Positions 264 through 51,348 of a stretch of DNA of 64,000 nucleotides are shown here, in pieces. The stretch is from a virus, in IMG/VR virus record IMGVR_UViG_3300030618_000004. One strand, written 5' to 3'. The position numbers and the translations under genes were made by a program. The stretch's first letter is position 1. The number at the start of each line of letters is the position of its first letter. The notes beneath the pieces were generated by a model. That model did no database searches. It saw only the letters and a list, made by a program, of their open reading frames with translations, and was not told where the DNA came from.

Positions 264-868
264 GGTTGTTCCTTACTAGATACTAAAATGTGATTGCCAA
301 CTTTAGGGTGGACACAGTTTCTCAATATCTGTGCAGGACAATGATTATTTCCATAATAAATATTTTCTTCATAATGAATACCAAGCCAGTCCATTAATTT
401 TTTCTTTCCTTCTAAGTTTGACAGGTTTATAAAACCATCAGGTCTATCAACATCGAAATAATCAAATTCAAAATTTGACCAAATTAAATGCCTTCCCATC
501 TTTTTCGCTGGAATTAGCGGCTCATAATAAGGATTCACATTTTCCACAACCCAATTACCTTTAAAAAAATGCTTAAGAAAAATTATTTCTTGGTATAGCG
601 TCATATCGACATATCGTCTATTTTTGTGACGAGTTGCCTTATTCATCTTACTGTGCGTCTGGCACGGTGGTGAACTCCATATAAAATCAAACTCTGCATA
701 GTGATCTAGAAGATATTGATGTGCATCACCGACAATAACAACATCTTCTGGGTAGAGCCGCTTATAAACATCTGCAATTTTTTGATTATTTTCAACGGAC
801 GTAATCTGGCAACCTGTCCAATCCTTTCTATTTCCTCCAAGACCTGAATAAAGATTTAAAACTTTCAT
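260..868 (-). CDS. DNA (cytosine-5) methyltransferase, unusually short (202 aa)
   Basis: Motif I LNLYSGLGG, motif IV SSPPCQTHS, motif VI VVENV, C-terminal RNCVHPKVGN (motif X-like). There is little room for a target recognition domain. Confidence 0.8.
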   Translation of the reverse strand: MKVLNLYSGLGGNRKDWTGCQITSVENNQKIADVYKRLYPEDVVIVGDAHQYLLDHYAEFDFIWSSPPCQTHSKMNKATRHKNRRYVDMTLYQEIIFLKHFFKGNWVVENVNPYYEPLIPAKKMGRHLIWSNFEFDYFDVDRPDGFINLSNLEGKKKLMDWLGIHYEENIYYGNNHCPAQILRNCVHPKVGNHILVSSKEQP

Positions 869-1032
869 TTCACTTCCTCCGTTGGCATTGCTTCTAGTTC
901 TTTGATTGCTGCGCGGATTACTTTAAATTCAGGTCGCCAATCCACCGGATAATCTTTAACTTGCATAAGCTCTACAGCTAACAATCCCTTACCCAGCGCT
1001 GCTAATATCTGAGCCTTCTGTTGTGGGGTCAT
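865..1032 (-). CDS. hypothetical protein (55 aa; start moved to MTPQQKAQ)
   Basis: This ATG sits just downstream of the upstream gene's stop codon (1034-1036). The longer track ORF (to 1077) would overlap that gene. Confidence 0.4.
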   Translation of the reverse strand: MTPQQKAQILAALGKGLLAVELMQVKDYPVDWRPEFKVIRAAIKELEAMPTEEVK

Positions 1033-1033
1033 A

Positions 1034-1339
1034 TCAAGCCTTTGAATGGCGCTCATAAAGCAGGTTGATAAAATCAATCTGGCGCTGATTCAGCATGTCC
1101 ATTTTGAAAGCGTTGCCGGACGAGATCCAGCAATTGAAAAGGTAGTTCTCTTCCCAGTCAATAATCTTACCGCACTGGCATTTGCCGTGAAGGAAAGTAA
1201 GTTTTTCGGCAGATGAAAATTCATGCTCTGGCTTTGATGCAAGTCCGCACAGTTCAGCCAGTTCGCTGTATGTCGGAAATTCCGCTTTGCCATTGCGATA
1301 TTCTGCAAGATGATTTTCTAATTCGATTAAAGTTTTCAT
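1034..1339 (-). CDS. hypothetical protein (101 aa)
   Basis: ORF tightly packed in the leftward operon. No family recognised. Confidence 0.5.
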   Translation of the reverse strand: MKTLIELENHLAEYRNGKAEFPTYSELAELCGLASKPEHEFSSAEKLTFLHGKCQCGKIIDWEENYLFNCWISSGNAFKMDMLNQRQIDFINLLYERHSKA

Positions 1340-1341
1340 AG

Positions 1342-1509
1342 CTACTTTCTGTAGTTTTGAATTAATCGTTGAACTGCTGGAAGCAATTCATTCAGTCGGA
1401 AATTTGGGCATTGATGGCCTGTTAATCTAACCGATTCAGGATTAATTCCCCGCGCAGCAATATATGCATGGCCGCGTAAATCTTGCTTGAATATTTCAGA
1501 TAAATTCAT
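1342..1509 (-). CDS. small hypothetical protein (55 aa, below the track cutoff)
   Basis: Hand-translated as MNLSEIFKQDLRGHAYIAARGINPESVRLTGHQCPNFRLNELLPAVQRLIQNYRK. GGAG lies about 10 nt upstream. It fills an otherwise empty gap. Confidence 0.3.
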   Translation of the reverse strand: MNLSEIFKQDLRGHAYIAARGINPESVRLTGHQCPNFRLNELLPAVQRLIQNYRK

Positions 1510-1606
1510 TTCCAAAGACTCCGAATAAGAACCAATAAAATAAGAAAAACATAAAAATGAAATGGCGCTGAAAAATGAATCAAAAGATATAGAGCGAATA
1601 TTGAAA

Positions 1607-1831
1607 TCATTTCTTTGTCCGATCTTCGGTTAGCAACGCTTCTGTTTGGCGCTCCAAGACGTATTCTTTGACTTTATCTATCCTTGCTTGATATTCAGCA
1701 AAAGATTCAACCTTGGCCGATTTAACTGGTTCTGTTGACTTCTTCGCTTCGGTGTAATCGCTCGAACTGAATACAACATAACAACCAAAAGCGCAGATAC
1801 ACAATACAATCATTCCTAGTCGAGTGAACAT
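1607..1831 (-). CDS. small membrane or lipoprotein-like protein (74 aa)
   Basis: Hydrophobic N-terminus MFTRLGMIVLCICAFGCYVVF with a lipobox-like AFGC. Confidence 0.45.
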   Translation of the reverse strand: MFTRLGMIVLCICAFGCYVVFSSSDYTEAKKSTEPVKSAKVESFAEYQARIDKVKEYVLERQTEALLTEDRTKK

Positions 1832-1833
1832 GT

Positions 1834-2991
1834 TTAATCCTTAAACAGTGAATTAATAGCAATTTCAGCGTCTTGATGAGATATGTCGAATGATTCTGAT
1901 ATTGCACTAAGAATGTCATTTTTGTTCAATACGATGCCGCCGACGCAGATAATTGGAGCTTCAATTGCATTGATAAAACCAACTGTTGACTCGATCAGCT
2001 TATCAGCGATAATTGCTGGCTTTGGCGATGGTATTACTGATTGCATGTGCGCGAGATATTCCGCTTGCTCTTTCTCGAATTTGGCCTTGTCCTCTTCTGC
2101 TTGGACGGCGGCATTCTGAGCATCGATAGCTTTTTGCTTCTCAGCTTCAAATGCGGCTATCTGAGCGTTTAAATTATCTTGCACTTGCTTTGCTACCAGT
2201 CTTTCGTTTTCGATGGCTTGGCGCTCTGCTTTGATGGCTTCATCACGAATCTTTTGCTCGACTTCCTGCTTAATACGATCTGACTTAGCTTGGTCATCGA
2301 TCAATTTCTGTTGCGCGGCCAATTCCTTGCGGACTCGCTCGTTTTCTTCTCGCTCGGCCTTTAACCTGGCAACTTCGGCTTCGCGTTCCTTCTGTTCCTG
2401 GATGCGTTTTGCTTCTTCCTGCTTCATTTCAACTAGCATATTAGAAATTTTAGCCTTGGATATTTCAGCAACAGATTCAACCTCGGACAGGTATTCTTGG
2501 TAAAAAGTATCTTTATATCCAGTTTCATTTAAATCGTTTAAAATTTGCTCAATGCCTGAAATTGATTGCCCTATACATAAAGCAGGGATATCACGGACAG
2601 TTTCAATAGCATTTTTGATTTTTTCAATCCGCGCACGTTCGGCGGCAATCTTCGCCTGTTTTTCCGCTTCGATCTTTTCATCCCATAAATCACGGATTGC
2701 AAAAATCCTATCTTCTTCTGGTTTGATTAAATCAATCAGGCGCTTTTCTTCTGCAATCACTGCTTTGCTGAACTGCGTTGCGTCTTCGCGTGATTCTTTG
2801 CCGGTCTTAGCGATTGCAATGCGTGTATTGCTTAATGTCATACCTGCGCGATGAATCTGGTCACGTCCTGCATTGTCTTTAATTTCGACTAAATCTTTAG
2901 TCTTGCTGATTAACTCGACCAACTCCAATTCGTATTTCGATGAATTAAGCGCTACAGCCGCACGTTGCACCAATGTTAATGCTTGTGTCAT
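1834..2991 (-). CDS. coiled-coil protein (385 aa), function unknown
   Basis: Long E/K/A/Q-rich heptad-like stretches. The antisense ORFs on the + strand here are by-products of that composition. Confidence 0.6.
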   Translation of the reverse strand: MTQALTLVQRAAVALNSSKYELELVELISKTKDLVEIKDNAGRDQIHRAGMTLSNTRIAIAKTGKESREDATQFSKAVIAEEKRLIDLIKPEEDRIFAIRDLWDEKIEAEKQAKIAAERARIEKIKNAIETVRDIPALCIGQSISGIEQILNDLNETGYKDTFYQEYLSEVESVAEISKAKISNMLVEMKQEEAKRIQEQKEREAEVARLKAEREENERVRKELAAQQKLIDDQAKSDRIKQEVEQKIRDEAIKAERQAIENERLVAKQVQDNLNAQIAAFEAEKQKAIDAQNAAVQAEEDKAKFEKEQAEYLAHMQSVIPSPKPAIIADKLIESTVGFINAIEAPIICVGGIVLNKNDILSAISESFDISHQDAEIAINSLFKD

Positions 2992-3020
2992 TTTATTTTC
3001 TCCGGTTAGTAAGTACAGCC

Positions 3021-3049
3021 ATTATTACTGATTGATTATTGATAGTCAA
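3021..3049 (-). promoter_or_regulatory. sigma70-type early promoter (TTGACT-N17-AATAAT), conserved 29-mer
   Basis: The reverse complement reads TTGACTATCAATAATCAATCAGTAATAAT. It matches 10358..10386 at 28 of 29 positions. It is enclosed by a 10-bp inverted repeat (3015-3024 and 3058-3067). Confidence 0.55.
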
Positions 3050-3077
3050 TAGTTATTTAATGGCTGTTGTTTTTATA

Positions 3078-3500
3078 TCAAAAAGGTGGGTCTTCTAAAT
3101 CATCAAAATTAGGCGATGGTCGAGATTGATTCTGGGGCGGCCTTGGCGCTTGCTTAGACTGAGGTGCTGGCGCAGACTGTGCTGATTTGTTTTCTCCAGC
3201 AAATTCCAGGTTAGTAACTCTGCCTACCAACTTCCATTTTTCCGCGCCATTCGATTGATACGATTCCATATGGACATCATCCACGGTCACATGGAGTAAT
3301 TTGCCTTTACCAAGGTATTGTTCCAGAGCTTCTGCCTGTTTCCCCCATAGGCTCGCGTCAATCCACTGACTAGTCTTATTTCCTGACTGGTCTTTCTTTC
3401 CATAGTTATAAGCCAATGCCAAGTTAATTACAGCATCCCCGGCAGGAGTTCGGCGCAATACGCAATCGCGCCCGATTCTTGTTAGTCCGATTAATTGCAT
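3078..3500 (-). CDS. ssb: single-stranded DNA-binding protein
   Basis: OB-fold-like N-terminus, a Q/P/S-rich linker and an acidic C-terminal tip DDLEDPPF, typical of bacterial and phage SSB. Confidence 0.85.
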   Translation of the reverse strand: MQLIGLTRIGRDCVLRRTPAGDAVINLALAYNYGKKDQSGNKTSQWIDASLWGKQAEALEQYLGKGKLLHVTVDDVHMESYQSNGAEKWKLVGRVTNLEFAGENKSAQSAPAPQSKQAPRPPQNQSRPSPNFDDLEDPPF

Positions 3501-3502
3501 GA

Positions 3503-4276
3503 TTAGCTTTCGTATTCGTAATTGTGATCAATCAAAATTTGCTTCTTCATTCTCTCAATGTAAAGTTGAGCTTCGCGGCAACGTAATAGCATTTTTCTCT
3601 CTATATCAAAATCTCGTTTGTAAGTAACGGTTGTTACCCTTAAAAGCGCGTCGATATGCGAGACTTCATGCAATTTGATATCTTCCCACTTGATCAATTC
3701 TTCTGGGGTATCGACCAACACCCAATCTAGATTAAATTCCGGCACATCGTAGAGATGCATGTAAGCGCGTCCTTGGAACTCGTATAACGTGCTGTGAGCG
3801 CGATGAATTAATTTTGGGAACGTGTCTAGGCTCCATGCGTTTTTAACGTCACGTACGCGCTCACCTGCCACGTAGATGTCACATTCACCGGATAGCAAAT
3901 CAGTTTCAATTCGACCTGAGTGCTTGGCGTATCTGGTGAAATAAACTTGATTGATTAAATCAATTCCAGCCTGTTCGCACATCAATCCTTTATTGAAGGA
4001 TTTCAAATCTAATTCTGCGCGATAACTGTAACTTTTTTCTCCGGCCAAATCTTCCAGATAGGTTTTTGCTCCAGCCGATAACGTGTGATCCCAAAGCGGC
4101 TGCAATAGTTCATGATCGGATGGCGTTTTCTTTTTCGACGAAATCAATTCTTTGGCTTCATCGGGCGAAATCAACATTTTCATGCGCTCAAAGTCAGCGA
4201 CATTCAACAATGATTTATCGATTGATACAGCATCAGTCATAATTTTTCCAATACTGGATGGATGAATGAGTTCCAT
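3503..4276 (-). CDS. PD-(D/E)XK (YqaJ/lambda-exonuclease-like) recombination exonuclease
   Basis: N-terminal HPSSIGKIMT and a D...DVK motif (CDIYVAGERVRDVK). It lies next to the ERF annealase. The start is placed at MELIHPSS (4276); the track start at 4450 would add a W-rich 58-aa extension. Confidence 0.5.
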   Translation of the reverse strand: MELIHPSSIGKIMTDAVSIDKSLLNVADFERMKMLISPDEAKELISSKKKTPSDHELLQPLWDHTLSAGAKTYLEDLAGEKSYSYRAELDLKSFNKGLMCEQAGIDLINQVYFTRYAKHSGRIETDLLSGECDIYVAGERVRDVKNAWSLDTFPKLIHRAHSTLYEFQGRAYMHLYDVPEFNLDWVLVDTPEELIKWEDIKLHEVSHIDALLRVTTVTYKRDFDIERKMLLRCREAQLYIERMKKQILIDHNYEYES

Positions 4277-4415
4277 TATTTTCTCTTTCCAATATTTAAA
4301 ACTAACAATGCGGTTCCACGGAAAATGGAAGTAATAATTCCACCAGCCACGATGATTAATAATAAACATCCCCAAAAATGCCAGCCATTTAAAAACATGA
4401 AATTTAGATATTCCA

Positions 4416-5207
4416 TTATTTTTTACCTTTTTTGAATTCGGATTCAGCATCGCTCAAAGCGATATCCTGATCCGTGGTTAGTTTATATCTGGACAAAATA
4501 TCTGCTTTAGTCCATTCACCTTTTTTGACAGATGCTTCGGCTTTAGCAAATGAACCTTTGGAGAGAGTGCTTTTCGCTTCCTCTTTCTTTTCTAGTTCGG
4601 CATCGCCAGCGCCACGGCCATCGTCATCAATTTCAGATGTAGATAATCCACAAGCTGCCAAGAATGTATAGCGCTGCAAATAAGTTACAGTTGATGATAA
4701 AGATTGAATAGCGTTTTTCTTCCCGGTATTGTCAGGTGGAGCTTCCATTGTGTTCGCTTCGCTATGTCCTAAGCTATGCGTCAATGTGCACGTTACCCGA
4801 ATCATTCCATTTCCAGGCTGTTCTTGTGACCAATTATGCGAGATTCCATAATCAGCCAAGGCAGGAATAACGATATTGCAGATATTACCAAGTGTGGCAT
4901 GGTTGTAACTGATGCCAGAGTGTTCAACGTGGGCATCCTTGCCGATACGGGGCGCATTGCGTTTGAAATCAGACATTGCCGCAACATAGGCTTTCTTGGC
5001 TTCTGCCGCGTCGTATCGCTCTTTTAAATCCATCAGCATCTTAAGTTCTTCGATACTTGCTCCGCGCTGCACAGCCATGCTTAAAAAGTCTGATGGCGTA
5101 GTAGATAACTGGCGCGATGAAGATGCAGAGACTAAATCTGTTTTACGATCTTGAATTACTTCCAACTCAATAGTTTGAGTGTCAACGATTGTTTTTTCTT
5201 CTATCAC
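4416..5207 (-). CDS. erf: ERF-family single-strand annealing protein
   Basis: ISYNHATLGNICNIVIPALADYGI and KKNAIQSLSSTVTYLQRYTFLAACGLSTSEIDDDG match my recollection of the ERF family signature. Confidence 0.8.
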   Translation of the reverse strand: MIEEKTIVDTQTIELEVIQDRKTDLVSASSSRQLSTTPSDFLSMAVQRGASIEELKMLMDLKERYDAAEAKKAYVAAMSDFKRNAPRIGKDAHVEHSGISYNHATLGNICNIVIPALADYGISHNWSQEQPGNGMIRVTCTLTHSLGHSEANTMEAPPDNTGKKNAIQSLSSTVTYLQRYTFLAACGLSTSEIDDDGRGAGDAELEKKEEAKSTLSKGSFAKAEASVKKGEWTKADILSRYKLTTDQDIALSDAESEFKKGKK

Positions 5208-5308
5208 TTTATTCTCCGGTAATTAAAAAATCAGCAGAACAATTATCGACTGTCCGTACGCGCAGATGGCTAACCGTCCTACATTGTACTGCCCTGCTGA
5301 TGGGTTAC

Positions 5309-5336
5309 ATTTTACAGTAAAGCTATCCATAGTCAA
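5309..5336 (-). promoter_or_regulatory. candidate promoter (TTGACT-N16-TAAAAT)
   Basis: The reverse complement reads TTGACTATGGATAGCTTTACTGTAAAAT, upstream of the ERF gene. It shares the extended -35 TTGACTAT with three other promoters. Confidence 0.4.
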
Positions 5337-5360
5337 TAGATATATTATTGATGTTGTTAA

Positions 5361-5867
5361 TTATTCTGATTTCCATGCCTGATTAAATTCCTTATCTGCG
5401 AATAGATCAGCCAAGCCAGTAATTTGTTTTAGTCTTAGCAATTCATCCTTATCCATGCCAACATGCTTTAAAATCCATGCATCAGACATTCCTGCCTTTG
5501 ATAGCTCGGCAACGATACTAGACATTAAATCGATTGAATGCGAACCCCTGGCGCGATTGTGGCGGATCGTTGAGGCCATTCGGTTTGATTCATCCTTATC
5601 GATAACCACTACCGGCAACAATCCATTTTCACGGTCGAAAATACGCCTGCTAGTTTTTAGTGTTGTGTACCGATGATAGCCATCAACTATTTCGTAAATG
5701 TCTTCTTCGGGCAGGTAATAGCATACAACCGGCATTGTGTAGCCATCTTCCCAAATCGAAATTTCCAGAAGCTCCATTTCAGGCGGAGCAACAGAATTAG
5801 GGTTGTAAGTATTAGCTCTGATTTTTTCTAATGGAATTGCTTTGACGTTATAAACTGGACTGCTCAT
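5361..5867 (-). CDS. IbrB-like ParB/Srx-domain protein
   Basis: YEIVDGYHRYTTL and STIRHNRARG motifs. The start is placed at MSSPVYNV, preceded by GGAGAAAAAA. It overlaps the stop of the upstream PAPS-reductase gene by 20 nt. Confidence 0.75.
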   Translation of the reverse strand: MSSPVYNVKAIPLEKIRANTYNPNSVAPPEMELLEISIWEDGYTMPVVCYYLPEEDIYEIVDGYHRYTTLKTSRRIFDRENGLLPVVVIDKDESNRMASTIRHNRARGSHSIDLMSSIVAELSKAGMSDAWILKHVGMDKDELLRLKQITGLADLFADKEFNQAWKSE

Positions 5868-7158
5868 TTTTTTCTCCGAGAATATTTGAATATTTTTTTG
5901 TTGCTTCTGCGCGTAATTGTGTTTCTGTTTTTGTTGCACTAAACCCCATGAACTTACATAGATGATCATTCTTAATAATGCAAACACAAAATCTCTTATA
6001 ACTTGGAATTTCTGAAAACTCCGTTATATCTATATCGTCCACATAATCCATCATGACCGGCAATTTATCTGTTTGAAAATTAGTCTTTTCACCCATTCTG
6101 AATTCGATATTATTTTCACGTAATTTTTCAATCACGCCAGACGAAAGGCAGCCGCCCTTGTCTTTCCAAAAAATCAGACTTTTTTCTAGTTTTTTTTTAT
6201 AGTTTTGCACCGCCGATTCTGGAAGCGTAGTGAGTAAAAATTCCATGTAACTTTTCCATGTATGACCTGAAGGAAGCTTAATGTTGCGCCATCCCATTGC
6301 GGTAGTACCACCGTAAAGACCGGCAAAATTAACTCCGTTGGTGCGGCCAATCATTTTTCCCCAATTCTTCGGATCGATAACTTTATAAAGTTTAAGCGAT
6401 GCAATGCCACACTCATGAAACGGGCTAGCAACGCGCATCTGATCAGGCGTAACACCAGCCTGCCAAAATAAATCATAAAGCTTGTTGTAAGTCCATTGCT
6501 GCTGCGCGTTTGCTACCCAGACATCATTTACTTTCCAGTCAAATATCGGATAAGCGTTATAAACATTTTCAGCCATTTTTAGCGTATAGATTAATTCATT
6601 GTATTTATTTTGATTCTTATCAGAGTGAATTGCTCTCCATCGATTCATTGATTCATCGGTTCGAATTCCAACCAAGCAACAAGTTTTAGTGGCTTGTTTT
6701 TTATTGTGATACCACTCTGCAAAACGGGTTTGCAATTCATAGTCACGCATACCTTTGTTGAACCATTCGAACTCGTGATTTTCTTCGTTGACGCATATTG
6801 ATGGAAGTTCGCGAACCCATAAATGCTTATCGTTTTTATCCCAGGGAATCCAATAAGACGAATGCATTGATGTGGCGCAGGATGCAGCTATTGGCATACA
6901 AATTCTATATACATCAAAAATATCCAGATTTTTCGCCAATTCCTGATCAACATAATCTGTTGTCATTTGGTATTGCGCTTCATAGTCGATATGGAATACG
7001 CCAATTTTTCTATGTGGCGCATGGTTGCGAATATAATCAATGCATAGATTAAGCAATACTCCGCTATCCTTGCCACCAGAAAAAGAAACATAAATATTAT
7101 CAAAATCTTGAAATATTTTATGTATCCTATCGTTTGCCGCCTCAAAAACATTCATCAA
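5848..7158 (-). CDS. IbrA-like PAPS reductase / PP-loop ATPase family protein
   Basis: PP-loop VSFSGGKDSGVLL. The 436-aa size and the pairing with a ParB-like gene match the IbrA/IbrB arrangement. Confidence 0.8.
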   Translation of the reverse strand: MMNVFEAANDRIHKIFQDFDNIYVSFSGGKDSGVLLNLCIDYIRNHAPHRKIGVFHIDYEAQYQMTTDYVDQELAKNLDIFDVYRICMPIAASCATSMHSSYWIPWDKNDKHLWVRELPSICVNEENHEFEWFNKGMRDYELQTRFAEWYHNKKQATKTCCLVGIRTDESMNRWRAIHSDKNQNKYNELIYTLKMAENVYNAYPIFDWKVNDVWVANAQQQWTYNKLYDLFWQAGVTPDQMRVASPFHECGIASLKLYKVIDPKNWGKMIGRTNGVNFAGLYGGTTAMGWRNIKLPSGHTWKSYMEFLLTTLPESAVQNYKKKLEKSLIFWKDKGGCLSSGVIEKLRENNIEFRMGEKTNFQTDKLPVMMDYVDDIDITEFSEIPSYKRFCVCIIKNDHLCKFMGFSATKTETQLRAEATKKYSNILGEKNEQSSL

Positions 7159-7390
7159 TTTTTCTCCGGGCTATTTCTATTTTTTTAAGTGCGATATATG
7201 AATTGCATTGTTCTTTTGAGAATCCAAGACTGACTAGCGCAACGTCATTCTTGAGTATCGCCATGCAAATTTTCCGGTAAGAAGGAACTTTGCCAGAAGC
7301 TTCTAAGATCGGCGGCGCTGAATCCGGTATCCCGTTTGGATATCCCTGCCGCTCCCATTTCTTCACATATTGGATTATTTTTTCTTTCAT
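7142..7390 (-). CDS. hypothetical protein (82 aa) sharing a motif with the IbrA-like C-terminus
   Basis: VPSYRKICMAILKNDVALVSLGFS resembles IPSYKRFCVCIIKNDHLCKFMGFS at the end of 5848..7158. A GAAAGG SD precedes the ATG. Confidence 0.5.
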   Translation of the reverse strand: MKEKIIQYVKKWERQGYPNGIPDSAPPILEASGKVPSYRKICMAILKNDVALVSLGFSKEQCNSYIALKKIEIARRKIDECF

Positions 7391-7748
7391 GCCTTTCTTC
7401 CCATAATTGAATTGCTTCTTTTGCTTTTAAGTTTGCCGCTTCCTGCTGTTCAAGATTAAGAGCATGCCAAGCTTTACGCGTGATATCTTCTGGTGCGCCA
7501 ATTGCTAAACACGTAGCCGCATGGCCAATCCAAGCTTTGCGATTTTGGTTTAAATCGGTCAGATTGTGCTCACATGTTATTGGCCATTGCTCAATAACTA
7601 ACAACATAGCTGCGCCATAAATTTCTGCATTACCAGTGAATTCAATCGCTAAATCAAGATACTGATCGCGATCTTTTCCTGAAACTGTACGCCACATTCC
7701 AGAATTAAAATCTTCCCAAATTTGATATGGGTGAAATATTCGTTTCAT
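7245..7748 (-). CDS. hypothetical protein (167 aa)
   Basis: Clean ORF. Its last ~48 codons overlap the 7142..7390 gene in another frame, so the true C-terminus is uncertain. Confidence 0.5.
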   Translation of the reverse strand: MKRIFHPYQIWEDFNSGMWRTVSGKDRDQYLDLAIEFTGNAEIYGAAMLLVIEQWPITCEHNLTDLNQNRKAWIGHAATCLAIGAPEDITRKAWHALNLEQQEAANLKAKEAIQLWEERHERKNNPICEEMGAAGISKRDTGFSAADLRSFWQSSFLPENLHGDTQE

Positions 7749-7891
7749 TTAATTTTCTCCACAATCTCGACAATAATTTTCTTACGAAACTGGCCTTTTT
7801 TAACGTCAGGGCGTTTTAGATAATCTAGCCAGTTGGCGAACTCCGGTGATGGCTGGAATGCTTCTGGTGGTATGTTGCTGAAGTTATTCAT
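7745..7891 (-). CDS. small hypothetical protein (48 aa, below the track cutoff)
   Basis: Hand-translated as MNNFSNIPPEAFQPSPEFANWLDYLKRPDVKKGQFRKKIIVEIVEKIK. It has ATGA-type overlaps with both neighbours. Confidence 0.3.
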   Translation of the reverse strand: MNNFSNIPPEAFQPSPEFANWLDYLKRPDVKKGQFRKKIIVEIVEKIK

Positions 7892-8528
7892 TATTTTTCG
7901 CCGGATTGAATTTAAAGTTTTTCTTCAGTTTCTCCATCGACTGAACATGATCATATCCACGACAAGGCATCATTGCGACAAGTATTTCTGGGTAGAATTC
8001 AAACTGAATAATAATTGTTGTGCCGATTTCTTCATTTGACCAGAATCGGATAGGAAACGTTTTGGCGCGTTTCATTAAATTTACTTTGTTCAATTTATCC
8101 AAAATATTAGCTGATACATAGCTCGGCATAATAGGTTTCAGTAATTCAAAATCAGGGATGACTTTTCTGAAATCTGGAAACTTAATTTTTTCATTTTCTT
8201 CGACAAAACATTTTCCTGGCTGAATAAATAATTCGTTGCCAGCCACGCCGACAATTTCAAGCCGTTGAGTTTCTTCGTTAATCAAGCATTTATTTTCGTC
8301 ACTTGAACAGTGCTTGAATAAATCCTGATTGACGTAAAATGTCTTTGGCTCAGTTACTATCGCATCTTTATCGATAACAACCATCATGCAATGACCATCA
8401 GTAGCAACTAGTATCGCGCCGCCTTCAGAATATGGTTCGATATGAACGCCTCGTAAGTAATACCGAATATCACCGAAGCCAATGAAGTGTTTCAGTTGTT
8501 TTAGATAACTTGCTTTGAATTGAATCAT
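7884..8528 (-). CDS. DnaN (beta sliding clamp)-like domain protein
   Basis: ILVATDGHCMMVV resembles the VATDGHRLA segment of bacterial beta clamps. At 214 aa it is shorter than a full clamp. Confidence 0.45.
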   Translation of the reverse strand: MIQFKASYLKQLKHFIGFGDIRYYLRGVHIEPYSEGGAILVATDGHCMMVVIDKDAIVTEPKTFYVNQDLFKHCSSDENKCLINEETQRLEIVGVAGNELFIQPGKCFVEENEKIKFPDFRKVIPDFELLKPIMPSYVSANILDKLNKVNLMKRAKTFPIRFWSNEEIGTTIIIQFEFYPEILVAMMPCRGYDHVQSMEKLKKNFKFNPAKNNE

Positions 8529-13815: not shown

Positions 13816-14256
13816 TTAATCCAACAATCCAAGTTTTTTATTGGTAAGCGCATTCTTGCCAAATAGTTCAATGGCTTTTTTATCGAATGCAAGGGCGGCA
13901 CCTTTGGCATCATCAAAAATACCCAGATGGATTGGACTTCCTTCCGTATCTATAATCTTTGATGCGAATTTTCCAGAACTAAGTAAGGCGATTCCACGAA
14001 ATCCATGCTTATATTCATGCGGTACTATAGAGTCTTCAGTGATTTTGAATTTATCCTTGCGAGTAGCCTTGATTAATCGCTCAGTTATTTTTCTACTTAC
14101 GACAGAGCCGCGACATTTGCCGTTAATTAGAGTTTTGATGCTAACTTCAGCTTCATCACATACTCGCGTACGCAATTCAACTAACTTAGCCTTTTCAATT
14201 CGACTAATTCCTTTTTGTCCCGGATTGGTGGATTCTAGCCATTGTGCGACATTCAT
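13816..14256 (-). CDS. AP2-domain DNA-binding protein, first gene of the leftward operon
   Basis: HGFRGIALLSSGKFASKIIDTEGSPIHLGIFDDAKGAALAFDKKAIELFG is an AP2-like fold signature. Confidence 0.6.
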   Translation of the reverse strand: MNVAQWLESTNPGQKGISRIEKAKLVELRTRVCDEAEVSIKTLINGKCRGSVVSRKITERLIKATRKDKFKITEDSIVPHEYKHGFRGIALLSSGKFASKIIDTEGSPIHLGIFDDAKGAALAFDKKAIELFGKNALTNKKLGLLD

Positions 14257-14284
14257 ATTCTTCCTTTGTAAAAATAATTAATTC

Positions 14285-14313
14285 ATTATATCTCTGCTGA
14301 TATATATAATCAA
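14285..14313 (-). promoter_or_regulatory. leftward early promoter (TTGATT-N17-TATAAT)
   Basis: The reverse complement reads TTGATTATATATATCAGCAGAGATATAAT, about 30 nt upstream of the 14256 start. Confidence 0.5.
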
Positions 14314-14371
14314 TCTGTATTCTATGTTATAGTTTAACTGTTATTCTCCGCGCTGCGAAAGTAGCGATTTG

Positions 14372-14400
14372 TCCGTGTTGTAAAAGGCACGGATTTTTTT
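14372..14400 (+). terminator. rho-independent terminator hairpin plus T7 run
   Basis: tccgtg-ttgtaaaagg-cacgga followed by ttttttt. It lies upstream of the rightward promoter, so it would end a short + strand transcript. Confidence 0.5.
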
Positions 14401-14421
14401 CAATAAAAGGATAAATACACC

Positions 14422-14450
14422 TTGACTATGAATAATCAATGAATTATTAT
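14422..14450 (+). promoter_or_regulatory. rightward promoter (TTGACT-N17-TATTAT)
   Basis: TTGACTATGAATAATCAATGAATTATTAT. It shares TTGACTAT and ATAATCAAT with the 3049 and 10386 promoters. Confidence 0.6.
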
Positions 14451-14492
14451 TTGATCGTTGTTTGAATTTTTAAATTAAATCACGGAGAATAT

Positions 14493-15110
14493 ATGAAAAT
14501 TACAAAAGAATTATTGAAAGAATGGGACGCATGCAGCAATGGCTTTAAATGGTTTTTGCAAAAGTTCCCTCAAGGTGGCGATGTGCATGAAGTTGGTTCA
14601 ACTCTGCGTGTAGACAAAAGATACGACGATGCGCGTTGGCTGACATCTCACGTGTTTGAGCAGTTCATCAAAACACCTAGTGATATCGCTTCATACGTTG
14701 AGGGCGATGTCGCAGCAGTGATAAAGGAAACTGATATCGCCGTGACGCTGAAAGCCGTAGAGGGTTCGCCTATTTTTGCATCCGGCGATTACAGCAAGGC
14801 AGCGTCATCCGGCGATTACAGCAAGGCAGCGTCATCCGGCGATTACAGCACTGCAGCGTCATCCGGCAATTCCAGCACTGCAGCGTCATCCGGCTATTCC
14901 AGCAAGGCAGAAGCAATTGGAGAAAAAACTGTATCAATGGTTGCAGGATGTAATGGTCGCGCAAAAGCTGGCTTGAAAGGTGCATTTGCATTAGCTTGGC
15001 ATGATGAAAATTCGGGATCAATGAAAATTTGCGTTGGAGAAGTTGGATTTAATGGAATAAAAGCGGATGTGTTTTATTGTGTTAAAAATGGCGTTTTGGT
15101 AGAATTTTGA
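14493..15110 (+). CDS. tandem-repeat protein (SGDYSKAAS nonapeptide units)
   Basis: GGAGAA SD. The N-terminal domain contains EWDACSNGFKWF, followed by five 9-aa units and a C-terminal domain ending GIKADVFYCVKNGVLVEF. Confidence 0.7.
   Translation: MKITKELLKEWDACSNGFKWFLQKFPQGGDVHEVGSTLRVDKRYDDARWLTSHVFEQFIKTPSDIASYVEGDVAAVIKETDIAVTLKAVEGSPIFASGDYSKAASSGDYSKAASSGDYSTAASSGNSSTAASSGYSSKAEAIGEKTVSMVAGCNGRAKAGLKGAFALAWHDENSGSMKICVGEVGFNGIKADVFYCVKNGVLVEF
14781..14915. repeat. 27-nt tandem repeat, 5 units
   Basis: tccggcgattacagcaaggcagcgtca occurs twice exactly, followed by three diverged units. Confidence 0.9.
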
Positions 15111-15134
15111 CTTGTAATATATTTATATAAGTTT

Positions 15135-15855
15135 CCTGATACTTTAAAAATCAGGGTCAAGACGCATGAGGATTGCAAGATGCGACTGCCCACGGGTCGC
15201 TCGTTGTGGGACGGTAGCAGTCCTCAGTCGTGTTGGTGAATGCGAAGACTGATTCGCAATGAAGACCAGAGTCGGTAATTTAATCATGTTAGATAGACGC
15301 TGAATCTAACAAGCTGGAGATCAGTACCAGACATCAACTGACAGGCCGGAAAGACGGCACTAAATTAAGTTCACTGATGAGCCTGCGAAATTCAGGCGAA
15401 ACGCGAAAGCGTATGAACGTCGGAACTACACCGTAACCATCCTCAGGATGAAAAGGGATGTAGGCTGTTGCCGCGATTGTAGTCCGATAGAGTCGCGCTG
15501 CCGTAACAGTAGGTCGAAGGAAAGCCGGTCGAAGACCAAAAAAGTTTTACGGGACACATGGCTTGACAGCTGGAGAGACAGCAATGAATTGATGGGTTGC
15601 GATCGCGCATCCCTAAACAGGTGACCGAATAATTCGGGGTACTAACAAATGCGACGGCATTTTCCCGGTGCGGAACACGGGATTGAGTTAGGAAGAAATA
15701 CTGGTGAAACAGTTGGGCGATTGGCAGATCGGAAAGACGGTCAATGATTTCACACCAGAAGCACAGTAAAATGGCTACGTGAAAAATCATAGTGAGCATC
15801 GGCACGAATCGGTAAATTGTCAGATCAATTCCGGCGATGCAATTTAAAACTTACT
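15135..15855 (+). ncRNA. candidate large structured non-coding RNA (class unknown)
   Basis: 755 nt lie between genes with no + strand ORF of 60 aa or more. G+C is visibly higher: 31/60 in the 15421 line against 18/60 and 24/60 in the flanking lines I counted. Many short hairpins carry purine-rich loops, for example acgc-GAAA-gcgt at 15401-15412, gccg-GAAAGA-cggc at 15345-15358 and gatcg-GAAAGA-cggtc at 15727-15742. G-U pairs and GNRA loops favour the + strand. Confidence 0.45.
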
Positions 15856-15865
15856 GGAGAATACA

Positions 15866-16210
15866 ATGAAGAAATTATTAATTATTTTGTCAATATTATC
15901 ATTAACGGCTTGCGGATATTCAATTCGTGATGCTGAATTAGTAGGGCAGGTTAAAAAGGTAATTACAAATACTCCCTTGTTTTGTCCAAACTACATTGAG
16001 GCAGATATTAGCCTGGGCGTAATTCGCAATGGCGTTGGTTCAATGTCAACACAAGACATTTGGGTTGTCGTTAATAAAGGCGACGCTGAAATTTTAAAAT
16101 CTGCGGCTGAAAATGGCGAAATTGTAAAAATAAACTACGATGAGGAACGCCTAATGTCAGTCTGGTGTACATCAGGCCGTAAAGCGACTAGTGTAGAAAT
16201 ATCCAAATAA
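15866..16210 (+). CDS. lipoprotein (114 aa)
   Basis: Signal peptide with lipobox MKKLLIILSILSLTAC. A GGAGAA SD precedes the start. Confidence 0.7.
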   Translation: MKKLLIILSILSLTACGYSIRDAELVGQVKKVITNTPLFCPNYIEADISLGVIRNGVGSMSTQDIWVVVNKGDAEILKSAAENGEIVKINYDEERLMSVWCTSGRKATSVEISK

Positions 16211-16332
16211 TGAAAACATTATCGGTGCTTCTGTGTATTTTTAGTGCGTTGGTATATGCATTAGGGTATATCCCTGATGCTATTTATTTCATGGCCATGG
16301 CAATATTCTTTTCACTGAACGATAAAAAATGA
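16210..16332 (+). CDS. small membrane protein (40 aa, below the track cutoff)
   Basis: TAATG overlap with the lipoprotein stop. Hand-translated as MKTLSVLLCIFSALVYALGYIPDAIYFMAMAIFFSLNDKK. Confidence 0.35.
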   Translation: MKTLSVLLCIFSALVYALGYIPDAIYFMAMAIFFSLNDKK

Positions 16333-29999: not shown

Positions 30000-31594
30000 T
30001 GGCGAGCATAATTGACAGTCTTTTTATCGAGCTAGGAATCGAGACAAGCAAGTTTGATGCTGGTCAAAAAGAAGCTATTAAGAAAATTAAGGACATTGAA
30101 AAAGCGTCTTTGAGTCTTGACCGCGAGTTAAAAAAATCACAATCTGAAAAAGAATCTGCGGCTAAAAAAGCACAGGTCGAAGCCGATAAGCAAAGAAAAA
30201 TCGAAGAGTCAGCAAATAAAGAACGGCTCAATGGGTTAAACAAAGCCAAGGATGCCATTCTTGGATTCGGTCTTGCTACACTCGGCGTGGCGGGATTCAA
30301 GGACTTCGTGCAGCAAACCGTCCAAGGAAATGCCGCGTTAGGTCGCCAAGCAAAAATACTCAGTACTTCAGGAACAGACTTAGACGCATGGGGGAAAGTA
30401 GTTGAGCAATCTGGCGGCTCACTTCAAACGTTTCAATCGTCACTTCAGAGCATCGAAGGCGGCATTGCTGATTTTAAAATCGGCAAGAGTTCGGCTATCT
30501 ATCAAAGTCTCGCGCAACTATCTGCACTGGATAGCGTGGATATGCAAAAAGGTACTGTTGACCTGTATAAATTATCAGATGCAGTTGTCCGATATTCCGA
30601 AGTTCATGGCATTCAAGCAGCGCGTTCCCGCTCATTAGAAATAATGGATGAAAGCATGTTTAATACCATGCTGAAAGGCGGCGATGCGGTTAAAGACTTG
30701 CACGATGAAATGTATAAACTTTCTGGTGTTACTGATGAAAATATCGATAAGGCTACAAAATTAAATAATAAATGGACAGAATTAGCCCAAACATTAAGCA
30801 AAAATAAACAGGACATTTTCGGAATATTAGCTAATCCAATGAGTGAAACGCTAGATGCGACCACGTCGATGATGAAGGGTGGAATTGGCAGTAGCGTCTA
30901 TGACATATTGCATCCGGGCGACCAATCAGATAGGAAGAAAAAACAAAATGTAATGGATTTTTTGAAGTCATCTAATCCACTTGCTGCGCCATTCCTAAGC
31001 TTATTTGATTCATCATATCCATCTGGCGAGCATCATTCAGATGAATCTCATGGTGGACATATTGGCGGTTCGGGCGGCATTGATTTGGATGCCATTAAAA
31101 AAATAGAATCAAACGGAAATCCAAATGCTATTTCTTCTAAAGGAGCAAAAGGCGCATATCAATTCATAGATTCGACTGCTTCACAATATGGACTGCATGG
31201 TAGCGATGTATTTGATGAATCGAAATCTCGTATTGCGGCAGACCATTTGTTTAAAGATTTATTAAAACAATTTGGCGGCGATGTCGACAAGGCTTTAGCT
31301 GGGTACAATTGGGGAACTTCGGGATTAAATTCCGATATTGCAAAAAATGGATCTGATTGGTTGAGTCATGCCCCTAAAGAAACTCAATCGTACATTAGAC
31401 AATATCATGATTATGTTGGCGCAAAAATGGGCGTAAATAGCTCAGGTGGAAATAGCACGTCATCATCTTCAGTTCAGATTCAAAATATGAATATCAATAC
31501 CAGTGCGACGAATGCCGCTCAATTGGGAAGTGATATACACAGTGAATTAAACAATAATTCATTTATCAATGCCGGAACGATGGGGGCGAGATAA
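29999..31594 (+). CDS. tape measure protein with a C-terminal lytic transglycosylase domain
   Basis: Coiled-coil N-terminal part. SLT motif KKIESNGNPNAISSKGAKGAYQFIDSTASQYGL. Confidence 0.8.
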   Translation: MASIIDSLFIELGIETSKFDAGQKEAIKKIKDIEKASLSLDRELKKSQSEKESAAKKAQVEADKQRKIEESANKERLNGLNKAKDAILGFGLATLGVAGFKDFVQQTVQGNAALGRQAKILSTSGTDLDAWGKVVEQSGGSLQTFQSSLQSIEGGIADFKIGKSSAIYQSLAQLSALDSVDMQKGTVDLYKLSDAVVRYSEVHGIQAARSRSLEIMDESMFNTMLKGGDAVKDLHDEMYKLSGVTDENIDKATKLNNKWTELAQTLSKNKQDIFGILANPMSETLDATTSMMKGGIGSSVYDILHPGDQSDRKKKQNVMDFLKSSNPLAAPFLSLFDSSYPSGEHHSDESHGGHIGGSGGIDLDAIKKIESNGNPNAISSKGAKGAYQFIDSTASQYGLHGSDVFDESKSRIAADHLFKDLLKQFGGDVDKALAGYNWGTSGLNSDIAKNGSDWLSHAPKETQSYIRQYHDYVGAKMGVNSSGGNSTSSSSVQIQNMNINTSATNAAQLGSDIHSELNNNSFINAGTMGAR

Positions 31595-51169: not shown

Positions 51170-51348
51170 TTCAACGAATATCCCACATAAAAATTAACAT
51201 GGTCCCTGATGGTACTTTCACCGACGCCATATTTACGGGCCAACGAAGCATAACCAAATCCGCGCTTGCCAGGTTTGTATTCCTGGCGTATTGCGCGAAT
51301 CTGATCGAGTGTTAATGATTTACGCCTCGTCATCGAATAAATCTCCAT
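51166..51348 (-). CDS. small HTH protein
   Basis: GYASLARKYGVGESTIRDHV. Confidence 0.5.
   Translation of the reverse strand: MEIYSMTRRKSLTLDQIRAIRQEYKPGKRGFGYASLARKYGVGESTIRDHVNFYVGYSLK

Follow-up and report, generated by a model that had tools for sequence, protein, structure and literature searches.

A gene-free gap in a phage genome is best explained as a series of separable RNA modules that resembles a tRNA island without its tRNAs

The window analysed here is a stretch of 64,000 nucleotides (nt) from the IMG/VR virus record IMGVR_UViG_3300030618_000004, and our subject is a gap of 755 nt in it (15111-15865) that carries no gene. This gap is best explained by at least five structured-RNA modules, which together resemble a phage tRNA island stripped of its tRNAs. 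The gap holds a clamp helix (unit A), a predicted hammerhead ribozyme fused to a unit B, a unit C, a unit D and three hairpins of the form UGACA-stem-GARAGA that punctuate the series (Table 1), and the whole is inserted between a gene for a YdhT_N-domain protein of 205 amino acids (aa) and a mobile lipoprotein gene. The hammerhead, the hairpin and each of units A, B and C are members of sequence families that extend over other phages and prophages; their helices are kept on the + strand by compensatory changes, and in the other phages the modules stand in a different order and beside or between predicted tRNA genes. We assign a probability of about 0.6 to the reading that the gap is a same-strand array of separable RNA modules, that is, a co-transcribed, tRNA-island-like precursor of small RNAs that would be cut by the hammerhead and by host RNases.

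Results

The gap is non-coding and structured on one strand

The gap runs from the TGA (15108-15110) of the 205-aa gene (14493-15110) to the ATG at 15866, where a gene for a 114-aa lipoprotein (15866-16210) begins. A first-pass annotation of this DNA had described it as a non-coding, structured region in a phage, and this description stands. The longest + strand open reading frame (ORF) within the gap has 58 aa, in agreement with the earlier statement that none of 60 aa or more is present in the 755 nt; the G+C counts given for the 60-nt lines at 15421 (31/60), 15061 (18/60) and 15901 (24/60) are exact, and all hairpins that had been listed exist, with coordinates right to within 1 nt. The G+C content is 0.466 in 15111-15865 and 0.496 in the core (15160-15760), compared to 0.423 in the whole window. 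The + strand of the gap folds at -236.7 kcal/mol versus -205.0 +/- 6.5 kcal/mol in dinucleotide shuffles (z -4.9), and none of the 20 shuffles folds as well; the minus strand is unexceptional in comparison (z -1.5), so that the structure is specific to the + strand, as had been proposed.

The sole larger ORF in the gap has 120 aa and lies on the minus strand (15443-15805). Among 1.84 billion representative proteins it has a single relative, a repetitive protein of 983 aa. The nine longest stop-to-stop fragments of the six-frame translation have no match in PHROGs and the four longest have none in Pfam. A codon-position pattern of G+C was not found in the gap, whereas the flanking genes show one.

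Ten independent metagenome contigs, retrieved by an exact-protein look-up, match the gap at 99.7-100% identity, and the gap is therefore a stable part of the phage; being so alike, these copies are uninformative on covariation. No match to it was found by BLAST in 50,697 GenBank phage records; when the surrounding 8 kb was searched against these records, the terminase gene alone matched, at about 65% identity. Scans anchored on proteins (the lipoprotein gene in genomes and viral contigs, the small terminase gene in metagenome contigs) returned no relatives.

No Rfam family reaches its gathering score anywhere in the 64-kb window. At E<=10 the matches are weak ones to hammerheads and a few dispersed ones, below threshold, to unrelated families, and none of the models for GOLLD, ROOL, HEARO, OLE, raiA and group I/II introns, which the first-pass annotation had proposed to look for, gives a match in 14900-16100 at that threshold. 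The Rfam tRNA model has no match in the window, and ARAGORN predicts no tRNA gene in it. The annotation had left it undecided whether the sequence belongs to a known class or to a new one: none of the large classes just named fits, but one piece of the gap, the hammerhead, is of a known class.

A type I hammerhead in the middle of the array

The hammerhead reads GUUCA-CUGAUGA-GCCUG(CGAAAUU)CAGGC-GAAA-CGC(GAAA)GCG-UA/UGAAC. Stem I (GUUCA/UGAAC, 5 bp) is the open helix, and the conserved core is present, with CUGAUGA at 15374-15380 and GAAA at 15398-15401. Stem II (GCCUG/CAGGC) has 5 bp counted from its G-C pair (G10.1-C11.1) and a CGAAAUU loop; stem III (ACGC/GCGU) has 4 bp counted from its A-U pair (A15.1-U16.1) and a GAAA loop. 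The cleavage triplet is GUA, with A15413 as H17, and the predicted cut falls between A15413 and U15414. The annotation had listed gcctg-N7-caggc (15381-97) and acgc-GAAA-gcgt (15401-12) as hairpins; both are there, though not as lone hairpins, and are stems II and III of the ribozyme.

A matcher for this architecture finds one site on both strands of the 64 kb and none in 300 shuffled windows. The best Rfam scores are 21.8 bits for Hammerhead_3 (threshold 48.5) and 18.2 bits for RAGATH-1-hammerhead (threshold 56.3); these partial matches lie at 15351-15418, below every hammerhead gathering threshold, and owing to the permuted topology that of Hammerhead_3 extends over no more than the core and stem II. 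Despite the sub-threshold scores, the predicted fold of 15369-15418 is that of a hammerhead on structural criteria. Pattern scanning of IMG/VR produced 23 loci that are built in the same way, with 19 distinct sequences, in which 94% of the cells pair; each of the three stems has compensatory changes, at positions that the search pattern had left free. The copy in the window forms 13 of the 13 pairs scored in the family alignment.

Hammerheads occur in intergenic regions of phages and prophages, where their cleavage is thought to split long transcripts into shorter units (PMC3088659). The copy described here is a further member of this established class: it has the full catalytic core, three helices and the GUA triplet, and it is situated between genes of a phage operon. 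It differs in being of type I with an open stem I of 5 bp and a GAAA-capped stem III of 4 bp, in scoring below the Rfam thresholds, in its fusion to unit B and in the GARAGA hairpin on its 5' side.

A widespread hairpin punctuates the array

The punctuating hairpin consists of (U)UGRCA, a stem of 4-5 bp, a GARAGA hexaloop and the complementary stem, and it lies on the strand of the downstream genes. Exactly three copies (H1, H2 and H3) are present in the 64 kb, all inside the gap. The first-pass annotation had seen that a GAAAGA hairpin is repeated, which is correct, but had missed that it is a widespread phage motif: the pattern TGACA-N3-CGGAAAGACG occurs in more than 120 viral contigs among the matches listed, in some of them as 2-3 tandem copies, and a hairpin of the H1 type also stands immediately 5' of the hammerheads in the loci L037 and L027 (other loci are likewise given as L numbers). 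An earlier pattern, which demanded 'AANGAAT' after the stem, had returned 3 true copies in 52 matches, the rest being nearly all coding noise.

The three stem positions that the pattern leaves free pair in 75-87% of 118 distinct sequences, versus 42-61% after shuffling, and the stems contain 32 G.U cells versus 10 A.C cells. A tRNA gene lies within 400 nt on the same strand for 18 of the 118 copies and on the opposite strand for none; in 8 cases the tRNA starts 4-9 nt 3' of the hairpin. The pairing, the excess of G.U and the strand bias towards tRNAs are evidence that the hairpin works as RNA on the + strand. For the 5-mer just 5' of UGACA, a complement further upstream is about two times as frequent as for 5-mers at nearby offsets, which indicates that the hairpin usually follows the 3' strand of another helix. 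Beyond UGACA no conserved sequence flanks the hairpin in 115 sequences, the information content after it being about zero.

Unit C is a pseudoknotted RNA of phages and prophages

Unit C opens with GAAUUGAUGGGU, and its stem S1 (GGG/CCC, 15594-96 with 15611-13) holds in its loop the sequence AUCGCGCA (15602-09), which forms a pseudoknot with UGGGCGAU (15714-21) in the segment after AACAGU. A long-range helix of 3-4 bp, P2, joins CAG(G) at 15618-21 to (A)CUG at 15699-15702, and P3 is the hairpin CCGAA-UAA-UUCGG (15625-37); the 3' part consists of a variable P4 arm, AACAGU and H3 as the terminal hairpin. The hairpin noted earlier as ccgaat-a-attcgg is this P3; its presence had been recognised, its role as a helix of a pseudoknotted RNA had not.

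By nhmmer, 15585-15745 was tied to three viral loci. The pattern TGATGGGT-N8-16-TCCCTNAAC, which represents the conserved 5' end, occurs in more than 119 viral stretches among the matches listed, and 37 of 101 distinct extracted sequences are true copies of unit C. The structure was read from the sequences and then tested on alignment A3 (32 sequences), where 91.9% of the cells pair, versus at most 56% when the partners are slid by 1-3 columns. All eight pairs of the pseudoknot show compensatory double changes. In P2 the central pair takes the forms G-C, U-A, C-G and A-U and is never unpaired. The copy in the window forms 3/3 pairs of S1, 7/8 of the pseudoknot, 3/4 of P2 and 5/5 of P3, and it keeps all 33 invariant columns of A3, including the junctions UGAUGGGU, UCCCUnAAC and AACAGU.

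A covariance model, R1, that was built from 28 sequences with the window excluded matches 15586-15749 on the + strand over all of its positions (1-140/140) with 118 bits and E 5.6e-25, and nothing else in the window is significant. A weak match at 31350-31441 (15 bits, E 0.06) lies in a coding region and was taken as chance. Scanning of GTDB genomes gave 16 matches, of which R1 confirmed 14, one with 48 bits and the other 13 with 84-130 bits. Copies of unit C are thus found in prophages of Yersinia similis, Paraburkholderia, Pararobbsia and Undibacterium, in metagenome-assembled genomes (MAGs) assigned to Sulfuriferula, Syntrophus and Chromatiaceae, and more weakly in a MAG of Methylococcaceae. 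Rfam 15 contains no match to unit C in the window, L401 or L135 at E<=10; in the latter two loci it reports tRNAs, weak hammerheads and scattered sub-threshold matches to unrelated families. The canonical unit C has no BLAST match in the GenBank phage records.

Several copies stand 0-10 nt after tRNA genes or between tRNAs (L452, L385, L401, L356 and L135). In L401 unit C follows tRNA-Asp by 6-10 nt in an island of 18 tRNAs, in Pararobbsia (L452/L385) it is placed between tRNA-Met and tRNA-Glu, and in L356 it comes after tRNA-Glu and before tRNA-Lys. Within 1 kb, 13 of 46 copies have a tRNA on the same strand and none has one on the opposite strand. The island of L401 (IMG/VR 3300036770_004970) occupies 297-7899 on the minus strand, and about 800 nt of unannotated non-coding DNA between its unit C and the next tRNA may hold more modules.

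In several phages the flanks form a 14-bp closing helix, GUGUUUCAAUAUGGU/ACCAUAUUGAAGCAC, that encloses unit C together with the hairpin. The spacer GUGUGUUUCAAUAUGGU 5' of unit C pairs with ACCAUAUUGAAGCAC after the hairpin in L420, L440, L393, L401, L407 and L341, and it is also found 5' of some tRNA genes within those islands. No conserved protein partner of unit C was found, the most shared family being present in 7 of 52 loci. Unit C most probably exists as a discrete RNA that works alone or together with host factors; no phage protein accompanies it, and in some phages the 14-bp helix joins its ends. Antisense ORFs of 78-104 aa that overlap unit C (about -100 to +150 of UGAUGGG) cluster across contigs in the manner of protein families; they are artefacts that result from conservation of the RNA and probably give rise to false 'hypothetical proteins'.

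Units A, B and D and the small hairpins

The clamp of unit A has an outer stem CAAGACG/CGUGUUG (15158-64 with 15229-35), a 2x2 internal loop CA/GU and an inner stem UGAGGAUUG/CAGUCCUCA (15167-75 with 15218-26). Its consensus, ACACG-CA-UGRGN ... NCYCA-GY-CGUGU, surrounds unrelated inserts in L037, L460, L405 and L451, and some of these inserts contain the tRNA T-arm-like sequence GGUUCGAAUCC. Four clamps in tandem start from the 3' end of a tRNA-Leu in L037 (oriented 7262-8160), and in the Undibacterium prophage L460 three copies lie downstream of a unit C. The compensatory changes that both stems of the clamp show were judged by eye and are unscored. Within the third clamp of L037 is a segment resembling a tRNA (GGUUAGCCGAGAGG ... 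GGGUUCGAAUCCCGCC), which ARAGORN does not recognise and which may represent a tRNA-like RNA in permuted, split or extended form.

After their copies of unit A, L405 and L460 have GCGCA-GGCUGA-UGCGC in the position that is equivalent to that of the window hairpin at 15241-15258. A hairpin of the form CCGG-AGAUCAGCA-CCGG stands immediately 5' of the GAAAGA hairpin in L405 and is present in L460 too, which corresponds to the second of the two hairpins at 15288-15330 in the window; for the first of them (15288-15310) nhmmer found no relatives.

Unit B has a variable 5' part and a conserved core. Its helix P1 pairs AAGCC (15522-26) with GGCUU (15560-64) and runs directly into H2. The hammerhead and unit B together (15369-15565) match L030 by nhmmer with E 8e-10, and also L035/L036, L020 and L027; the core 'GAAAGCC ... 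GGCUUGACA-hairpin(GAGAGA)' is found in 17 other sequences. P1 is maintained by compensatory changes as AAGUC/GACUU in L139 and L175 and as ACGC/GCGU in L027. Unit B stands directly after a tRNA 3' end in L139 and directly before tRNA-Gly in L135. Unit D, which consists of two predicted hairpins (15745-15789 and 15796-15840), has no relatives by nhmmer, and neither has unit A2.

Insertion site and neighbouring genes

Both ends of the gap can be recognised in L011. This locus and L012 encode a lipoprotein 98% identical to that of the window on another phage backbone, in a DNA cassette that is 95% identical from 15840 on. At the other end, 15121-15160 is 79% identical to L011 446-487, which likewise opens a non-coding stretch 5' of the lipoprotein gene. 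L011 lacks units A-C and the hammerhead; it shares the GAAAGA hairpin with its flank, and in place of unit D it has a tRNA-Ser(UGA), bordered by that hairpin and the shared 3' junction. Beside more distant homologues of the two flanking genes such a spacer is absent, and the gap is therefore not tied to either gene.

The lipoprotein gene itself behaves as a mobile cassette (window 15840-16220, L011 749-1129), and homologues of 50-62% identity occur in unrelated phages beside genes for DNA polymerase or amidoligase. The YdhT_N gene contains tandem repeats of 9 aa (27 nt; SSGDYSKAA...). Its product has 205, 196 or 187 aa among otherwise identical metagenome contigs, which implies that the repeat number is polymorphic in the population; close homologues have 178 and 250 aa. 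Upstream of this gene, a divergent control region (14256-14493), in which either strand has promoter-like sites and a terminator-like hairpin lies at 14371-14394, separates a leftward operon (a 146-aa gene, DUF1367, NinG-like and DnaB) from the rightward operon. The promoter-like site at 14422-14450 is likely the start of a rightward transcript that would pass through the 205-aa gene into the array.

The whole 64-kb window looks phage-derived, with neither recognisable host genes nor tRNAs. It also encodes, at 51320-53575 on the minus strand, a protein of 751 aa in which an SNF2/DEAD-type helicase is fused to an N6/N4 DNA methylase domain.

Table 1. Features of the array and its borders in window coordinates (MFE, minimum free energy; RBS, ribosome-binding site).
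Feature	Position	Strand	Basis or remark
Promoter-like TTGACT-17-TATTAT in the divergent control region	14422-14450	+	Consensus scan only
Weaker promoter-like TTGGTA-16-TATATT	15096-15123	+	Consensus scan only
5' boundary hairpin CCUGAU-(9 nt)-AUCAGG	15135-15155	+	MFE fold; kept in L011
Unit A clamp helix	15158-15235	+	Recurs in other phages; encloses 42-nt insert
Hairpin UGCGAA-GACUGA-UUCGCA, 3' of unit A	15241-15258	+	Counterpart in L405 and L460
Two hairpins, GUUAGAU-N9-AUCUAAC (15288-15310) and CUGG-AGAUCAGUA-CCAG (15314-15330)	15288-15330	+	
H1, cUGACAG-GCCG-GAAAGA-CGGC	15338-15358	+	10 nt 5' of the hammerhead
Predicted type I hammerhead ribozyme	15369-15418	+	Structural matcher, family covariation
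Unit B, variable 5' part and conserved core GGUCGAAGGAAAGCCGGUCGAAGACCAAAAAAG (15512-15544)	15419-15562	+	nhmmer
H2, UUGACA-GCUG-GAGAGA-CAGC	15563-15582	+	Follows unit B helix P1
Unit C plus H3	15586-15749	+	Covariance model R1, alignment A3
H3, UUGGCA-GAUCG-GAAAGA-CGGUC	15721-15742	+	End of unit C
Unit D, two predicted hairpins	15745-15840	+	MFE fold
3' junction, RBS (GGAG) and start codon of the lipoprotein gene	15840-15868	+	Similarity to L011/L012 starts at 15840

Discussion

That the gap is a set of separable RNA modules on one strand is well supported by our analysis, and a course of events can be proposed for them. The array would be transcribed rightwards together with the flanking genes, and the hammerhead would cut the transcript after A15413. 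This would leave an upstream piece with a 2',3'-cyclic phosphate end behind a compact fold and a downstream piece, composed of units B, C and D and the lipoprotein mRNA, that starts with a 5'-OH. Host RNases would then trim the remaining modules to discrete small RNAs, and within tRNA islands the same modules would be freed by RNase P and tRNA 3'-end processing.

Several observations weigh against this proposal. The window itself is without any tRNA according to ARAGORN, only about a quarter of the unit C copies and about 15% of the hairpin copies are near tRNAs, and the likeness to a tRNA island is thus a tendency. Stem I of the hammerhead is just 5 bp long, no tertiary contact between stem I and loop II has been established, and activity at physiological Mg2+ is a prediction. 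For unit D and the hairpin at 15288-15310 no relatives were found, and both may be filler. Covariation in aligned homologues, which the first-pass annotation had set as a check, was found within the hammerhead, hairpin and unit C families; all near relatives of the whole gap are identical, which leaves the interaction of the modules with each other unconstrained. Co-transcription, cleavage by the hammerhead and processing into separate RNAs are all steps that we infer from the sequence.

A close parallel by description is the tRNA cluster of phage T4. It encodes small stable RNAs (species 1 and 2, or RNAs C and D) of unknown function, which occupy non-tRNA slots in the cluster and are released from a common precursor by tRNA-processing enzymes. 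The array in the window differs in that it has no tRNA and contains a predicted self-cleaving ribozyme. Ribozymes of another kind, the HDV-like theta ribozymes, are located directly beside phage tRNAs and have been proposed to process the tRNA precursor (PMC10879173). Unit C resembles them in starting 0-10 nt after several tRNA 3' ends; unlike them it has no match to an HDV-like or other Rfam ribozyme, and the type of ribozyme in the window is the hammerhead.

That unit C represents an undescribed class of catalytic or otherwise autonomous phage RNA in tRNA-type precursors seems unlikely to us. Compatible with such a class, without proving it, are the roughly 33 invariant nucleotides, mostly in junctions, the pseudoknot, the missing protein partner, the distance of 0-10 nt from tRNA 3' ends and the co-resident hammerhead. 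By analogy, one option is that unit C may cleave itself at its own 5' border and so free the 3' end of the preceding tRNA or module. With an autonomous unit C, the UGACA-GARAGA hairpin may be a companion element for recognition or docking.

We weighed five other explanations, which are taken here in the order in which they survive. One would argue that the gap is a cis-acting antitermination leader, in which the GARAGA hairpins are boxB/nut-like sites for an N-like protein or unit C is an RNA like put of HK022 or EAR of Bacillus, so that polymerase would still reach the lipoprotein and packaging genes through the long untranslated stretch. The boxB loops are GAAAA and GAAGA in lambda and GACAA in P22. 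As with the boxB hairpins of lambda and P22 and with put of HK022, the window offers short G+C-rich purine-loop hairpins or protein-free structured RNA close to a promoter: the hairpin combines a G+C-rich stem of 4-5 bp with a purine-rich loop, unit C has no protein partner, as would be expected of a put-like RNA, and the promoter-proximal position is in an operon that runs into the terminase genes. Untranslated arrays are natural targets of Rho, and a terminator-like hairpin follows downstream at 16258-16280. However, a lambda-type nut site was looked for and rejected: neither a boxA (CGCUCUUA-like) nor GCTCTT is present in 15000-15900, no upstream position is conserved among 115 members, and nothing beside the hairpin is conserved except UGACA. 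The loop has 6 nt and not 5, the many copies include tandem ones and others that abut tRNAs, 4-9 nt before the mature 5' ends, which is unlike the nut arrangement, and in other phages the helix that closes unit C points to a discrete RNA. Additionally, an N-like gene was not identified, and the adjacent 146-aa protein has no Pfam match. Thus we consider an antitermination leader unlikely.

The first-pass annotation itself had favoured a single ornate RNA of about 0.7 kb resembling GOLLD or ROOL, with the hairpins as domains of one fold. These RNAs are similarly non-coding, highly structured and present in prophages, often beside tRNA genes, and their function is also unknown (PMC5737381). The modules all lie on the same strand without a terminator-like site between them on that strand, the whole gap folds far better than its shuffles, and L030 and L460 have non-coding stretches of 0.6-1 kb made of similar pieces, which all would suit one large RNA. 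Nevertheless, no large-RNA model of Rfam matched even at E<=10, and what we observe is an array of small modules that recur independently and in varied orders instead of one conserved fold of 600-800 nt. L011 keeps the borders and exchanges the interior for a tRNA, and a hammerhead in the middle of the array would sever the transcript at 15413/15414. The sole predicted long-range closing helix, UAAGUUU/AAACUUA, consists of 7 A-U-rich pairs and is not kept in L011. Therefore the earlier proposal could not be upheld, and a single large RNA is to our judgement improbable.

A regulator in the 5' untranslated region of the lipoprotein gene, such as a riboswitch or an attenuator, is very unlikely. 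The gap is indeed immediately 5' of that gene, L011 has a non-coding stretch with the same borders 5' of its 98%-identical lipoprotein, and invariant junction nucleotides together with a pseudoknot, as in unit C, are typical of aptamers. However, more distant lipoprotein homologues abut their upstream genes directly, and units B and C and the hairpin precede tRNAs and many unrelated genes elsewhere; in the window about 100 nt of unrelated sequence (unit D) lie between unit C and the RBS, and no terminator or RBS-sequestering helix was seen.

The hairpins could also be signals at the DNA level, either promoters or recombination sites for the shuffling of cassettes, with decayed filler as the rest of the gap. 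Each hairpin has (T)TGACA on its 5' side, which resembles a -35 box, and two copies were picked up in a sigma-70 scan. T4-type phages possess promoter-stem-loop cassettes, and the divergence of the window from L011, which begins exactly at a hairpin, resembles these. The sigma-70 reading was rejected: in 115 sequences no conserved -10 element follows the motif at any distance, and tRNA 5' ends that lie 4-9 nt after the hairpin would be upstream of the expected transcription start. The stems also covary, with G.U far above A.C, and units A, B and C show no decay, being intact and scoring highly, which makes DNA signals highly improbable.

The weakest explanation, a protein gene or frameshifted pseudogene on the minus strand, has in its favour that the 120-aa ORF exists and is effectively refuted by the lack of database relatives beyond one repetitive protein, by the missing codon-position pattern, by the antisense ORFs that arise over unit C elsewhere as by-products of the RNA sequence, and by the variation of homologous stretches through compensatory base-pair changes, where the first-pass annotation had named protein-like substitution as the sign that would speak against an RNA.

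Our searches of the literature brought up no account of units A-C or the hairpin, and no family matched units B and C in the Rfam 15 scans. Fremin et al. (2023) reported 8,495 phage motifs of 29-151 nt that are supported by covariation, some of them tRNA-like, from the same source of sequences, IMG/VR (PMC10690425); in their text these motifs are unnamed and uncharacterised, and units A-C or the hairpin may be among them. New RNA families could be defined from units A-C if these have indeed escaped description so far.

In and around phage tRNA islands there are non-tRNA RNAs, among them GOLLD, ROOL and the stable RNAs of T4, whose role is almost wholly unknown. The window provides a compact example that is free of tRNAs, and in it four recurring modules are delimited to the nucleotide: a predicted hammerhead, a pseudoknotted RNA of about 140 nt, an element that consists of P1 plus the hairpin, and a clamp helix with variable inserts. 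The last three of these are widespread, in IMG/VR contigs as well as in prophages of Burkholderiales and of other Proteobacteria, including Yersinia.

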